Shown here: positions 1-3,000 of the stretch, piece by piece
Numbering within the stretch: the stretch's first letter is position 1
Layout of the letters: every line of letters starts with the position of its first letter
Origin: a virus
Taxonomy: Duplodnaviria > Heunggongvirae > Uroviricota > Caudoviricetes
Reading direction: 5' to 3' (one strand)
DNA length: 14,810 bases
IMG/VR virus record: IMGVR_UViG_2698536307_000010
Made by a program: the position numbers

Positions 1-3000
1 CGGCGCTTAGTGCTGAATTCACTATCGGCGAAGGTGAGTTGATGGCTCATGATGTCCCTCTGGGATGCGCTCCGGATGAATATGATGATCTCATATCAGG
101 AACTTGTTCGCACCTTCCCTAATGGACTCAACAGGTTTGTCATTACGGATATTACAGGTAGTGCAGAAACCTACCCTGTACTTATTGATACGGTGGAAGT
201 TAAAGCAAACAAAGCTGGAGCAGCCGCATAATTGCTAAAAAAAGCCGCCAGCGGCAGGAATGGAAGCTGGCGGAGGTAATCCCAATGGAGAATGTAAAGA
301 AAAGATGCTTTCGTACATTGGTTTTTAAATGAAAACAATTCTCATTGTCAACCATAACGGTAAGAAATTATGACATTTATTCATCAGGTGATGCTGTACT
401 TCTGTACGGCGGTCTGTGTGCTGTATCTTCTTTCGGGTGGGTACAGGGCTGTGCGCGATTTCTGGTGCAGGCAGATTGATAAAAGGGCCGCTGAGAAAAT
501 CAGCGCCAGTCAGTCAGCCGGAAGCAAACCCGAAGAGCCCGTTACTCCTTAACAACCCCTTTCAGCGAGAAAATCCCATGTCAGAAATCACATCCCTGGT
601 CACTGCAGAGGCAGTGAAGGAAGTCCTGCGCTCTGAAGAAGTCCGGAGCGCACTGAAACAGAAACTTCGCCAGAACCTTGAGTCGCGTCTTGATGCAGAA
701 GTGGATGCCATTCTGGATGAGCTGCTGGGCGTACCAGCGGTTCCTGAGCCGGAAGGTATCGCGGGTGACGGGAGTGCTTCAGATGGCGGTGAACCTACAC
801 CTGACAGCGACATGATGATGTAAGCATGCGCAAGGGACCATCGGTGTGTGCCGGTGGTCTTTATATTGTTGTGAGCTTCCGGATTGCGGGAGACGGGGTA
901 TGTACCAGATGGAAAAAATCACAACAGGTGTGTCATACACCACGTCAGCGGTGGGAACGGGCTACTGGTTCCTGCAGTTGCTGGACAGGGTTTCCCCGTC
1001 TCAGTGGGCGGCAATAGGCGTGCTGGGGAGTCTGCTGTTTGGGCTGCTGACGTACCTGACTAACCTGTATTTCAAAATCAAAGAGGACCGGCGTAAGGCG
1101 GCGCGGGGAGAGTAAGCTGATGAGCAGGAAATTCCGCTATGGTTTATCAGCGGTCGTTCTGGCGCTGATTGCTGCGGGCGCTTCTGCGCCTGAAATCCTC
1201 GACCAGTTTCTTGACGAAAAAGAAGGTAACCACACCACGGCATACCGTGATGGTGCGGGTATCTGGACTATCTGCCGCGGTGCCATCCTGGTGGATGGCA
1301 AACCTGTCGTTCCGGGCATGAAGTTGTCGAAGGAAAAATGCGACCGGGTTAACGCCATTGAGCGTGATAAGGCGCTGGCATGGGTGGAGAAAAACATCAG
1401 AGTGCCACTGACCGAACCGCAGAAAGCGGGCATCGCGTCATTCTGTCCGTACAACATCGGGCCTTCGAAATGCTTCACCTCAACGTTTTACCGGAAACTG
1501 AACGCAGGAGACCGGAAAGGTGCATGTGCTGAAATCCGCCGATGGATATATGACGGCGGCAGGGACTGTCGGAACCGCTCAAATAACTGTTACGGGCAGG
1601 TATCGCGGCGTGACCAGGAGAGCGCGCTGGCGTGCTGGAGTATCGACAGATAAGCAGAATATTCTGCTGAAAAATGCCGTTGACCAACGCGAACGGATAA
1701 CACGAAACCCTGCGAACTGGCAAAATTTAAGTGAGTAAAAGTAAAAACCCCGTTTGTTGGCAGCAAGCGGGGTTTTGTGTTTCTGACCTTGAATAAGGCA
1801 AGGGAGAAATTATGGGTAGGGAGGTTCTTTCCCTGTGAGGAAGTATAAAAGATTCTTTCTGAGGTTGTCCATTATGAAAGGCATTGAGGTGGAGACGCCA
1901 GCAAGTCTGGATTTAACAAGAGCGGCAGCTTTTGCCATTCGTATTGTGGCAATTGCTGTTCTGGTCTGGGCAATCCGTTGGTGGTGATATGAATCGTGTG
2001 CTGTATGGCGTGCTTATTGTCCTGCTGCTTGGTTGTGGATCGCTGTGGCTGGCAACAGACCATTACCGTGATAACGCCATCACCTACAAAGAGCAGCGAG
2101 ATGATGCGAAGACAAAACTCAGCCAGGCGAACGCCACCATTGCTGACATACAGCAGCGCCAGCGTGATGTTGCTGCACTCGATGCCAGATACACTAGGGA
2201 GCTTGCTGATGCTAACGCGACTATTGAAAGTCTCCGTGCTGATGTTTCTGCTGGGCGTAAGCGCCTGCAAGTCGCCGCCACCTGTGCAAAGTCAACGACC
2301 GGAGCCAGCGGCATGGGCGATGGAGAAAGCTCAGGACTTACAGCAGATGCTGAACTCAATTATTACCGTCTCCGAAGTGGAATCGACAAGATAACCGCGC
2401 AGGTTAACTACCTGCAGGAGTACATCAGGATGCAATGCCTCGATTAACAGAGCCAGCTCAATCGCTGGCCTTTTTTATGAGGAGAGATATAACCTGAATC
2501 AATGCCAGTGCATTATCAACAAATGGATCACTGGGTAAGCTCGTTTGGTTTTAAATGTCCGTCGAGAATCAGATTGTGATTTTCCCGATGCAGAACCAGT
2601 GTGCCCATATAATCAGGTTTAAATCTCCATCCATTCATTTTTTTTGCAATTCTGGACAGACAGTGATTATGTGTGAAAATCACAGTAACATGATCTGATT
2701 TTGATATTTTAAGGATATTATTTACTGCGTTATCATCACATGTCGATATGTCCGGAATAGTTGCTGTCTTACCTCCCGAAAAAAAAGTGGCTGTCTGCAT
2801 TGTTCGGAGTGTGTCTGTAGAATAGAGACTGTAGTATGGAAACATTCTTCTGAATTTATCTCCATATTGTTGAGCTTTGTTAGCTCCGTTTACTGTGATT
2901 CCCTCATGTGCTGAAAGACATATTCTTTGGGAGCGATCGCATCTTTCCCCATGCCGGATGAGAAAAATAATGGGATGTTTCTGGTTAATCTCAGTGACAT

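Follow-up and report, generated by a model that had tools for sequence, protein, structure and literature searches.

A conserved mini-gene at the spanin end of a Stx-phage lysis cassette encodes a candidate accessory lysis protein

We find that the DNA separating the endolysin gene R from the spanin gene Rz in the window (the whole 14,810-nt stretch of viral DNA analyzed here) is a conserved module of three parts, a hairpin, a leader, and a mini-gene, placed at the spanin end of the lysis cassette, and not junk left by a module swap. By its substitution pattern, the mini-gene is a real coding gene under strong purifying selection (dN/dS ~0.03). Its product most likely assists lysis as a late accessory protein coupled to the spanin, and it is toward this overall explanation that the sequence comparisons lead us, slightly, to lean.

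Results

The window carries a standard Stx-phage lysis cassette

The lysis cluster of the window is an ordinary Stx-phage late lysis cassette, made up of a P21-family pinholin (S), a SAR-type GH24 endolysin (R), and lambda-family embedded spanins (Rz/Rz1). The Stx1 phage GER2 is ~99% identical to the window, and 99–100% identical over the gap segments compared (1640–2000 and 1840–1995). The genes and the signal that closes the cassette are as follows.

900–1115, plus strand: S, class II (P21-family) pinholin, 71 aa (Pfam PF04971; phrog_9876/phrog_20 'holin')
1120–1653, plus strand: R, GH24 lysozyme, SAR-type endolysin, 177 aa (PF00959 at 5e-25)
1989–2447, plus strand: Rz, i-spanin, 152 aa (PF03245 at 7.8e-37; phrog_13 'Rz-like spanin' at 7.7e-69)
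2209–2394, plus strand: Rz1, o-spanin lipoprotein, 61 aa, lipobox LGVSAC (PF06085 at 2.1e-20; phrog_3198)
2452–2479, plus strand: terminator-like hairpin GCCAGCTCAATCGCTGGC and T-run (terminator scan)

S scored 112.8 bits (7.2e-33) with the profile PF04971, 'Bacteriophage P21 holin S', for which the cut-off is 26, and EssD of the K-12 prophage DLP12 is 82% identical to it, while a comparison with lambda S gave no similarity. We therefore predict that S is a pinholin, the formation of small depolarizing pinholes being a property of this family. The gene has two in-frame ATGs, at 900 and 909 (codons 1 and 4, MYQM...), and the residues between them add no positive charge; DLP12 EssD begins MKSM, unlike S. 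R ends with TAA at 1651–1653. Among solved structures, the phage 21 lysozyme 3HDE is closest to it (1.5e-18), and in that alignment its catalytic triad (E35, D44, T50) falls opposite the R21 residues; RrrD is 34% identical to R. The N-terminus, YGLSAVVLALIAAGASAP, is weakly hydrophobic and rich in Gly and Ala, with residues 8–25 (GLSAVVLALIAAGASAPE) resembling, by inspection only, a signal-anchor-release segment. The triad and this N-terminus make R a putative SAR endolysin. The pinholin and SAR-type identities proposed in an earlier note on this DNA are supported by PF04971, PF00959, and 3HDE, and the coordinates (S at 900–1115, R at 1120–1653, a 335-bp gap, the mini-ORF at 1874–1987, and Rz from 1989) all hold.

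The N-terminus of Rz, VLYGVLIVLLLGCGSLWLA, has a membrane segment, and Rz1 lies wholly within it (1989–2447) in the +1 frame. That Rz and Rz1 align closely with the lambda spanins, as had been claimed, was an overstatement: they belong to the same family, but lambda Rz is 48% identical to the window's Rz overall (58% over residues 1–94 and 33% from residue 95 to the end, the C-terminal 58 residues), and lambda Rz1 is 38% identical to its Rz1. Window DNA from ~2270 onward is common to only five of the fetched loci. The closing hairpin stands directly 3' of Rz and faces a convergent minus-strand gene.

The pairing of 21-type S and R with lambda-type spanins had been taken for a mosaic. It is not a notable one, because DLP12 and nearly all Stx phages have the same pairing. 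In K-12, DLP12 joins a P21-family pinholin and an R21-like lysozyme to lambda-like Rz/Rz1; among Stx phages, 99% carry a pinholin with a SAR endolysin, and this Rz family occurs in 277 of 279 (PMC8136144). The spanins of phage 21, 933W, other Stx phages, and lambda are grouped into shared families (PMC6139136).

A hairpin and an invariant leader precede the mini-ORF

The gap between the R stop and the Rz ATG at 1989 measures exactly 335 bp and contains the following features.

1653–1668, no strand assigned: perfect 16-bp palindrome AGCAGAATATTCTGCT, read from the sequence; overlaps the last base of the R stop
1735–1786, no strand assigned: terminator-like hairpin, stem 1744–1776, flanked by an A-run and a T-run (fold and terminator scan)
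1777–1873, plus strand: mini-ORF leader, ~95 nt (alignment of 30 distinct copies)
1842–1871, minus strand: hypothetical promoter-like site, TGGACA, 18 nt, TATACT (consensus scan, 10 of 12 positions)
1874–1987, plus strand: mini-ORF, predicted 37-aa single-pass membrane protein, phrog_4493 (profile match at 5.5e-16)

The hairpin at 1744–1776 has a stem of 15–16 pairs, including four A-U and one G-U, and folds at -21.1 kcal/mol (z = -3.85), a stability reached by none of 200 shuffled sequences. Its 3' sequence is GTGTTTCTG, its U-tract tail reads UUUUGUGUUU, and the minus strand continues after the stem as UUUUUACUUUU, a T-run at least as good as that on the plus strand. The strong hairpin with a T-rich tail described earlier is therefore present, but the description was one-sided: because an A-run precedes the stem and a T-run follows it, the structure resembles a two-way intrinsic terminator and could terminate transcription on both strands. 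It forms the 5' boundary of the conserved module. It follows R in more than 300 Stx phage records, where the R tail and hairpin are 86–92% identical, and it also lies 5' of the mini-ORF in M15, GH108, and Salmonella cassettes, in which homology starts at the A-run. Across eight contexts its outer 10 pairs are 97.5% paired, with compensatory changes in two of them. Of the 142 fetched loci, 62 contain a 24-nt motif, AGCAGAATATTYTGCTGAAAAATG, each a single time; it stands after R in S21-type cassettes and after the small lipoprotein gene in M15-type cassettes.

The leader contains an 8-codon upstream ORF (ATG at 1812 to TGA at 1838) with a strong Shine-Dalgarno sequence, and the mini-ORF has its own, GAGG, at 1861–1864. 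A block at ~1842–1873 is nearly invariant: between clades, one of the 31 nt leading up to the ATG has changed, against ~22 differences expected from the synonymous-site divergence of the ORF (~71%). We considered whether the leader RNA is structured or a fold hides the Rz start, and rejected both (z from -0.2 to +0.9). A consensus scan from the hairpin to the mini-ORF ATG found no sigma-70-like promoter on the plus strand, which fits a dependence of the mini-ORF on the late transcript.

The mini-ORF is conserved as a protein

The mini-ORF encodes MKGIEVETPASLDLTRAAAFAIRIVAIAVLVWAIRWW, known as ECs_1094 in Sakai and as WP_000675931.1, and labeled 'hypothetical protein' in GER2; the gene has been annotated 'hypothetical' since 2001. 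All 37 residues align to positions 14–54 of the 56 in the phrog_4493 profile, with weaker matches to phrog_1115 and phrog_3246; a 38/48-aa paralog matches all three. Mean Kyte-Doolittle hydropathy over residues 17–35 is 2.1 and the helical moment is low, with basic residues R16 and R23 N-terminal of the hydrophobic span and R-W-W at the C-terminus. The earlier note was right that a 37-codon hydrophobic ORF abuts Rz: its TGA occupies 1985–1987, leaving 1 nt before the Rz ATG. A 50-aa version with a GTG start was rejected, as the extra 13 codons are invariant in nucleotides, unlike coding sequence, and the 37-aa form is the one called by PGAP and most sources. Pfam, NCBIfam, and PADLOC defense models gave no match to the mini-ORF, and literature searches with ECs1094, WP_000675931, the peptide sequence, and phrog_4493 returned nothing relevant.

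Comparison with diverged copies gave a dN/dS of 0.026–0.050 in the mini-ORF frame and of more than 2 in the other two frames. Against copies with ~71% synonymous-site divergence there are 19.5 synonymous and 4.5 nonsynonymous differences, and variable sites are distributed 11/3/25 over the three codon positions. The motifs GxExxxP, AFA[IV][RK], and [RK]WW are kept in members less than 50% identical. It had been allowed that relatives might keep the R-Rz spacing with no coding conservation of the ORF; the mini-ORF is instead both coding and conserved.

The layout of the junction raises the question of whether the peptide matters at all. The Shine-Dalgarno sequence of Rz, GGTGGTGAT, lies inside the last mini-ORF codons, encoded by W-W-stop, and the invariance of the C-terminal RWW may reflect this downstream signal and not the peptide. 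The ORF could then be a translational device only, one that, with R and Rz no longer adjacent, brings ribosomes to the Rz start while its peptide does nothing, as the 1-nt spacing and the placement of the Shine-Dalgarno sequence would suggest; unrelated small ORFs elsewhere, such as the Stx2_14040 type, also end in RWW-stop before Rz. We nonetheless consider this very unlikely, as selection on the amino-acid sequence extends over the whole peptide, including the motifs that survive below 50% identity, and an ORF serving coupling alone would need no conserved hydrophobic helix.

The mini-gene keeps its place across unrelated cassettes

At least 80% of the segment 1800–1990 is present in 792 of 5426 complete E. 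coli genomes (~15%). Among phage records, any part of the mini-ORF appears in only seven and the full 37-codon form in only two. The family has 129 occurrences, and every one with flanking sequence available lies inside a lysis cassette. Over all the contexts, three unrelated endolysin types precede the mini-gene. Among the 129, in cassettes with an S21-like holin and a GH24 lysozyme, it stands directly 5' of Rz. In those with two holins and an M15 peptidase, it stands directly 5' of a 51–60-aa lipoprotein; these M15-type cassettes, among them that of the complete phage phiSTEC1575-Stx2k, have no recognizable i-spanin between the endolysin and terminase genes. A third arrangement combines a GH108 endolysin with Phage_holin_8 and holin_3_7, followed by the mini-ORF, 1 nt, and Rz, and a Salmonella cassette has holin_2_3 and a lysozyme followed by a 48-aa paralog, 10 nt, and Rz. 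The junction is TGA-N-ATG in nearly all copies, so that the start 1 nt from the mini-gene stop is that of Rz or, in Rz-less cassettes, of the small lipoprotein; homology to the downstream gene stops at that gene's ATG. One intact copy persists next to an IS66 element in what is left of a decayed prophage (locus L006), as might also be expected of a gene that benefits the host.

What lies in the R-Rz gap varies among relatives: some have an antirepressor gene, others between one and four small membrane ORFs, and others the mini-ORF. In Sakai, prophages Sp9, Sp10, and Sp12 carry an antirepressor gene and a 48-aa small membrane ORF; Stx2_14040 has a different small ORF broken by a stop codon, and some other Stx phages have three or four small membrane ORFs. 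The gap and mini-ORF are absent from the K-12 prophages DLP12 and Qin.

The earlier note had read the gap as a module-exchange junction whose hairpin could uncouple spanin expression from that of holin and endolysin. The part of this reading that stands is that the gap is variable and recombination-prone. The reading in full would make the gap a scar between 21-type S/R and lambda-type Rz/Rz1, with the hairpin separating the spanin genes and the mini-ORF incidental. The hairpin is indeed a good candidate for an intrinsic terminator, and module boundaries do fall in the gap, ~1775–1850 being common to far fewer loci than either flank. Yet this set of S, R, and Rz is the usual one, purifying selection on the mini-ORF is strong, and hairpin and mini-ORF travel together into unrelated cassettes. 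Similar hairpins, identified by terminator scan, lie before S (833–862) and after Rz (2452–2469), which fits a Q-antiterminated operon with read-through signals, and spanins have no known independent role without holin and endolysin. In Stx phages the hairpin region is inside the Q-antiterminated late operon (PMC10462455), and the stop-ATG layout argues for coupling, leaving the uncoupling of the spanins without support. We consider the scar reading very unlikely.

A minus-strand promoter-like site raises a toxin-like alternative

The minus-strand site at 1871–1842 points at the hairpin and, if active, would yield an RNA of ~100 nt. Such an RNA could hold in check a hydrophobic peptide in the manner of a type I toxin or moron module. 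The scan scored this site at 10 of 12 consensus positions. Its hexamers persist in 29 of the 30 distinct copies, the site recurs in an M15-type locus (L005), and it coincides with the ~31-nt block in which a single difference stands where ~22 would be expected. An A-run and a T-run flank the hairpin in every context, and weaker minus-strand promoter-like sites face it in other gap types. The size (37 aa) and hydrophobicity of the peptide are those of type I toxins, and the intact copy in a decayed prophage is in keeping with such a module.

Several observations weigh on the other side. No promoter for the peptide's own mRNA was found between hairpin and ATG in the consensus scan, the coding region lies outside the predicted RNA, and promoter-like matches are near chance, with 0.6–1.1 expected per region. 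We looked for a conserved fold in the putative antisense RNA and rejected it, only the terminator being conserved. The Hfq-CRAC table of Tree et al., 2014 lists neither a peak nor an Hfq-bound sRNA at the homologous gap in Sakai Sp4; EcOnc10, 11, and 12 are located after Rz, outside the gap. Rfam searches of the whole window at gathering thresholds returned nothing, and permissive thresholds over 1640–2000 gave chance-level matches only, ohsC among them at 16–17 bits against a gathering score of 50. Finally, a strict place directly 5' of the spanin gene is unexpected for a toxin-antitoxin locus. We regard a toxin module as unlikely, if somewhat less so than the scar or the purely translational device.

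Discussion

A possible role at the outer-membrane step of lysis

We hypothesize that the mini-gene product acts late in lysis. During lytic growth, by analogy with Stx phages and lambda, Q-modified RNA polymerase would pass the hairpin and place the mini-gene, Rz, and Rz1 on the late transcript, whereas in a lysogen polymerase lacking the Q modification would terminate at the hairpin. Ribosomes ending the mini-ORF at its TGA would find themselves on the Rz Shine-Dalgarno sequence, 1 nt from the ATG, and could start Rz. We infer this coupling because the stop lies 1 nt from the Rz ATG and the Shine-Dalgarno sequence in the last mini-ORF codons; the arrangement itself is observed, and it can be likened to lambda, in which an ATGA overlap couples Rz to R. 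The peptide would most likely serve as an inner-membrane accessory at the lysis stage, for the last, outer-membrane step.

Some observations sit uneasily with an accessory lysis protein. The same peptide pairs with Rz proteins whose membrane segments are quite different and, where Rz is absent, with a lipoprotein, and this diversity of downstream partners argues against a specific peptide-Rz interaction. The nearly invariant leader block, which coincides with the minus-strand promoter-like site, does not follow from this model. A wider and quite speculative extension, which we consider unlikely, is that the mini-ORF and its paralogs (phrog_4493, phrog_1115, phrog_3246, and perhaps other small membrane ORFs in the same spot) make up an unrecognized class of lysis components for the outer-membrane step. 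Where Rz is present, the peptide would help the spanin or set its timing, and in M15-type cassettes the peptide and the 51–60-aa outer-membrane lipoprotein would replace it.

Gram-negative lysis is taught as having three parts, holin, endolysin, and spanin. Recent work on Mu and LambdaSo shows that small membrane proteins, too, can be essential to it. The mini-gene is found in ~15% of complete E. coli genomes, EHEC O157:H7 included, and in Stx phages, whose lysis releases Shiga toxin. Strong selection and a fixed position at the spanin across unrelated cassettes make it a cheap and well-defined target for knock-out and complementation, and the survey points to a group of phages with the mini-gene and a small lipoprotein but, it seems, no spanin. 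Should the result for the mini-gene be negative, what remains is an ordinary lysis cluster of a Stx phage.

Comparison with known systems

The cassette resembles that of phage 21 and DLP12 in gene order and gene families (S, an R21-like R, and embedded Rz/Rz1). It differs from DLP12 in that R and Rz of the latter overlap, as in lambda, with no gap, hairpin, or mini-ORF between them, and in that the DLP12 Rz/Rz1 are 97% identical to those of lambda, against 48% and 38% for the window. The Stx phages (933W, Sakai Sp5/Sp9/Sp10/Sp12/Sp15, and the GER2 type) have the same combination of pinholin, SAR endolysin, and Rz, and vary in what the gap contains.

Like the type I loci tisB/istR, shoB/ohsC, zorO/orzO, and ldr/rdl, the module has a small hydrophobic peptide with Trp and basic residues at its end, and a promoter-like site and a terminator placed so as to produce a short RNA over the 5' leader. 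Unlike them, it has no toxin promoter that we could find, no detected sRNA, and no significant Rfam match, and it is fixed inside a late lysis operon. No function is annotated for the families phrog_4493, phrog_1115, and phrog_3246; the present work adds their link to the spanin position and the analysis of selection.

Precedents for a small accessory lysis factor are two single-pass membrane proteins that are required for lysis or modulate it, each from a SAR-endolysin system and each overlooked for decades: gp25 of Mu, a releasin (DUF2730; PMC9239132), and the 65-aa Lcc6 of Shewanella LambdaSo (bioRxiv 2024.01.23.576932). The mini-ORF has no sequence relation to either (no Pfam match) and is much shorter, with 37 aa and almost no soluble domain, gp25 being longer still than Lcc6. 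Unlike both systems, it also occurs with non-SAR endolysins of the M15 and GH108 types, which suggests a link with the spanin end of the cassette rather than with the release of endolysin.

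The lysis cassette is of a normal Stx-phage type

On re-reading the sequence, we found all of the lysis-cassette coordinates in an earlier note on this DNA to be correct, and its assignment of the holin and endolysin to the phage-21 type held. In profile searches, S matches the Pfam family 'Bacteriophage P21 holin S' (7e-33), and R, Rz and Rz1 match Phage_lysozyme, Phage_lysis and the Rz1 family, respectively. Among solved structures, the phage 21 lysozyme (3HDE) is the best match to R, with E35, D44 and T50 aligned. Terminator-like hairpins stand at three places in the late region, namely 5' of S, between R and Rz, and 3' of Rz.

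Features of the lysis region (window positions)
833-862: terminator-like hairpin, 13 pairs plus T-rich tail, between a DUF826-like ORF (end 823) and the S start (900)
900-1115: S, pinholin gene; second in-frame ATG at 909
1120-1653: R, SAR-type GH24 endolysin gene
1744-1776: hairpin stem, -21.1 kcal/mol, z = -3.85; T-rich tail after the stem
1874-1987: mini-ORF, 37 codons; TGA stop 1 base 5' of the Rz ATG
1989-2447: Rz, i-spanin gene, ATG at 1989; R-Rz gap exactly 335 bp
2209-2394: Rz1, o-spanin gene, embedded in the +1 frame relative to Rz
2452-2469: terminator-like hairpin after Rz
2528-3142, minus strand: Ais/PmrG-like LPS core heptose(II)-phosphate phosphatase, 204 aa, N-terminal hydrophobic segment

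The join of a 21-type S/R to a lambda-type Rz/Rz1, which the earlier note placed foremost, is ordinary. The K-12 prophage DLP12 has the same pairing, with a P21-family pinholin (82% identity to window S), the R21-like lysozyme RrrD, and Rz/Rz1 97% identical to those of lambda. So do Stx phages, 99% of which are predicted to encode a SAR endolysin plus a pinholin and 277 of 279 of which carry the Rz family of the window (Pinto et al., PMC8136144); lambda, 21, 933W and Stx phages share the same i-spanin and o-spanin families (Kongari et al., PMC6139136). Close alignment with the lambda spanins was an overstatement, because Rz is only 48% and Rz1 only 38% identical to lambda. Over gap segments 1640-2000 and 1840-1995, the window shares 99-100% identity with Escherichia phage GER2; this member of the genus Oslovirus is an Stx1 phage, and its record labels the mini-ORF a hypothetical protein. 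As a lysis cassette, that of the window is normal for an Stx phage and had been sequenced before.

We also observed a mosaic breakpoint inside Rz at ~2270, with the 5' two thirds common to 88 loci and the sequence from there onward to 5 only. It falls where the embedded Rz1 has its lipobox Cys codon; mature Rz1 and the Rz C-terminal domain were therefore exchanged as one unit. Against lambda and O157 Rz, residues 1-94 show 58-69% identity and residues 95-end 33-35%. Mature Rz1 (2269-2394) has the lipidated Cys only, whereas the mature part of lambda Rz1 has a second (CTSKQSVSQC...); window Rz retains two cysteines (...AATCAKS... and ...RMQCLD).

Immediately after Rz and convergent to the late operon lies the Ais/PmrG-like gene (NCBIfam PRK15416, 202 bits, cut-off 142; Pfam His_Phos_1 match), probably a lysogenic-conversion gene; the GER2 annotation covers only a 273-nt piece of it. 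At the equivalent position in comparison locus L133 (Sakai) and in Sakai Sp10 and Sp12 stands a small convergent gene instead (ECs_1788, ECs_1967, ECs_2255). EcOnc10, 11 and 12, which are very abundant Hfq-bound peaks (Tree et al. 2014), map 3' of these genes; they lie shortly downstream of where Rz ends, on the other strand from the late operon (~2020-2070 in L133, Sakai 1779522-1779569, and the equivalent place in Sp10 and Sp12).

The R-Rz gap varies between relatives

R and Rz overlap in lambda and DLP12, and it is the 335-bp gap itself that sets the window apart from lambda, 21 and DLP12. Among Stx-type and related prophages this region varies. The first ~170 nt 3' of R, including the hairpin, match more than 300 phage records at 86-92%, whatever comes next: an antirepressor gene and a 48-aa membrane ORF in Sakai Sp9, Sp10 and Sp12, three or four small membrane ORFs in tandem in other prophages, another small ORF type that ends RWW-stop and is interrupted by TAG in Stx2_14040, and in the window the mini-ORF. 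The proposal of a module-exchange junction is therefore borne out in that gap content varies between relatives, though not in that the 21/lambda pairing is no special join.

A perfect 16-bp palindrome, AGCAGAATATTCTGCT (1653-1668), overlaps the R stop codon. Of 142 loci, 62 have a single copy of the 24-nt motif AGCAGAATATTYTGCTGAAAAATG, comparison locus L005 (1849-1872) among them; it stands 3' of R in S21-type cassettes and 3' of a small lipoprotein gene in M15-type cassettes. The site could mark a module boundary or bind a protein.

The mini-ORF is a conserved gene that keeps to the spanin end

The mini-ORF matches phrog_4493 (5.5e-16), with weaker matches to phrog_1115 and phrog_3246 and none in Pfam, NCBIfam or PADLOC. 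It is ECs_1094 of the O157:H7 Sakai prophage Sp4 (PGAP, WP_000675931.1). At least 80% of 1800-1990 is present in 792 of 5426 complete E. coli genomes, and at least part of it in 1308. The 62 clusters at 90% identity, with records from E. coli, Citrobacter and Yersinia, are every one named 'hypothetical'. The family is narrow: when 1.84 billion representative proteins were searched exhaustively with a profile, no more than 29 clusters (50% identity) came up. Comparing the window copy with copies ~71% diverged at synonymous sites, we counted 19.5 synonymous and 4.5 nonsynonymous differences (dN/dS 0.026-0.050, against >2 in the two alternative frames), with 11/3/25 variable sites at the three codon positions. 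The coding conservation that the earlier note had made decisive for this ORF is thus present, and it is very probably a protein-coding gene under selection. Distant members retain an N-terminal GxExxxP, AFA[IV][RK] and a C-terminal [RK]WW; residues 17-35 are hydrophobic (mean Kyte-Doolittle 2.1, low helical moment), which predicts one membrane helix.

Mosaicism extends to the small proteins of the family (P0029, P0094, P0143 and P0166). Their N-terminal part is of one of several types (MKGIEVETPASLDLTR, MKNGLELKAPVTDDISR, MSAELIR, MFVDKTEN...), the membrane tail is ...IRIVAIAVLVWAIRWW or ...IKWVAVGIAVSPMLYGLAKLVIALKS, and the N-terminal types combine with either tail, joined at the common AFAI motif. 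In E. coli A34, an intact copy (L006 1524-1637, stop TAA) persists within the remains of a decayed prophage, flanked by an IS66 transposase pseudogene on one side and the host gene yecD on the other; Rz does not follow it.

With a degenerate DNA pattern written for its conserved core, we retrieved 120 IMG/VR stretches. Wherever flanks were available, the 129 family-member occurrences lie inside a lysis cassette. About 85 have an S21-like holin and GH24 SAR lysozyme 5' and Rz 3', a gene order also found around a cluster that the sources attribute to Citrobacter freundii; about 40 have two other holins and an M15 peptidase 5' and a 51-60-aa lipoprotein (phrog_7528, lipobox LVGC) 3'. The order in a GH108 context is Phage_holin_8, holin_3_7, GH108 endolysin, mini-ORF, 1 nt, Rz, and in Salmonella holin_2_3, lysozyme, 48-aa paralog, 10 nt, Rz. 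The gene is tied to the spanin end: holin and endolysin types vary, and its position immediately 5' of the last lysis gene is constant.

In M15-type cassettes the lipoprotein gene begins 1 nt after the mini-ORF (L005 1655-1837; phiSTEC1575-Stx2k, L136, 3649-3831), and the two fill the usual Rz/Rz1 place; no i-spanin candidate was found between the endolysin and terminase genes of these cassettes, including that complete phage. That the pair might form a spanin-independent outer-membrane disruption module we consider improbable.

The junction reads CGT TGG TGG TGA N ATG, and homology of the downstream gene stops at its ATG. The Shine-Dalgarno consensus is GGAGGTGAT, which GGTGGTGAT matches at 8 of 9 positions; the downstream ribosome-binding site is therefore encoded by the last mini-ORF codons. 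This arrangement suggests, with moderate confidence, that mini-ORF and Rz would be translationally coupled, the 1-nt junction standing in place of the R-Rz overlap of lambda. A pure coupling ORF with a dispensable peptide would account for the junction but conflicts with the selection on the peptide.

The hairpin and leader are constrained

A fold as stable as that of the hairpin was reached in 0 of 200 shuffles. In M15, GH108 and Salmonella cassettes the DNA 5' of it is unrelated, and homology begins at the A-run before it. In the eight contexts compared, the outer ten pairs of the stem show 97.5% pairing, with compensatory changes at two pairs, and everywhere the stem has A's before it and T's after it, so that it reads as a two-way terminator. 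Of the ~95-nt leader between hairpin and ATG, the last ~31 nt differ at 1 position between clades, against ~22 expected from synonymous-site divergence. The Shine-Dalgarno GAGG lies in this block, whose position is exactly that of a minus-strand promoter-like site (TGGACA-18 nt-TATACT).

The conserved minus-strand site and two-way terminator agree with a type-I-toxin-like module with an antisense RNA. This reading fits only in part, as a toxin promoter is lacking. The putative RNA has no conserved fold apart from the terminator, there was no Rfam family match, and none of the listed Hfq-bound sRNAs maps to the matching position in Sakai Sp4. Folding of the leader and the Rz start gave no notable RNA structure in either.

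Within the leader (1801-1838), a strong Shine-Dalgarno and start (AAGGGAGAAATTATG) begin an 8-codon uORF, MGREVLSL-stop, whose end is the edge of the conserved block. Its Salmonella counterpart is of equal length (MCREVYSL-stop) and that of the M15 clade has 13 codons and a GTG start; the uORF includes a 5-bp stem (AGGGA/TCCCT) whose loop varies.

A possible late lysis-stage role

Stx and lysis genes are transcribed from a Q-antiterminated late promoter (PMC10462455). On the simplest reading, polymerase would read through the hairpin in lytic growth, and the hairpin would otherwise stop unmodified polymerase. The mini-gene would be a late gene whose translation supplies ribosomes to Rz, and its product a small inner-membrane protein active at the lysis stage. 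The earlier proposal that the hairpin uncouples spanin expression is at odds with both the late-operon context and the conservation of the module.

The identical peptide occurs with differing Rz membrane segments and with the lipoprotein; specific binding to Rz is therefore unlikely. The gap is of modest interest as the site of a conserved, widespread, uncharacterised small membrane-protein gene at the spanin position, with a constrained leader. Action of the peptide in lysis is, taken alone, a claim to which we give less than an even chance; small membrane accessory lysis proteins have precedents, unrelated to it in sequence, in the Mu gp25 releasin (PMC9239132) and LambdaSo Lcc6.
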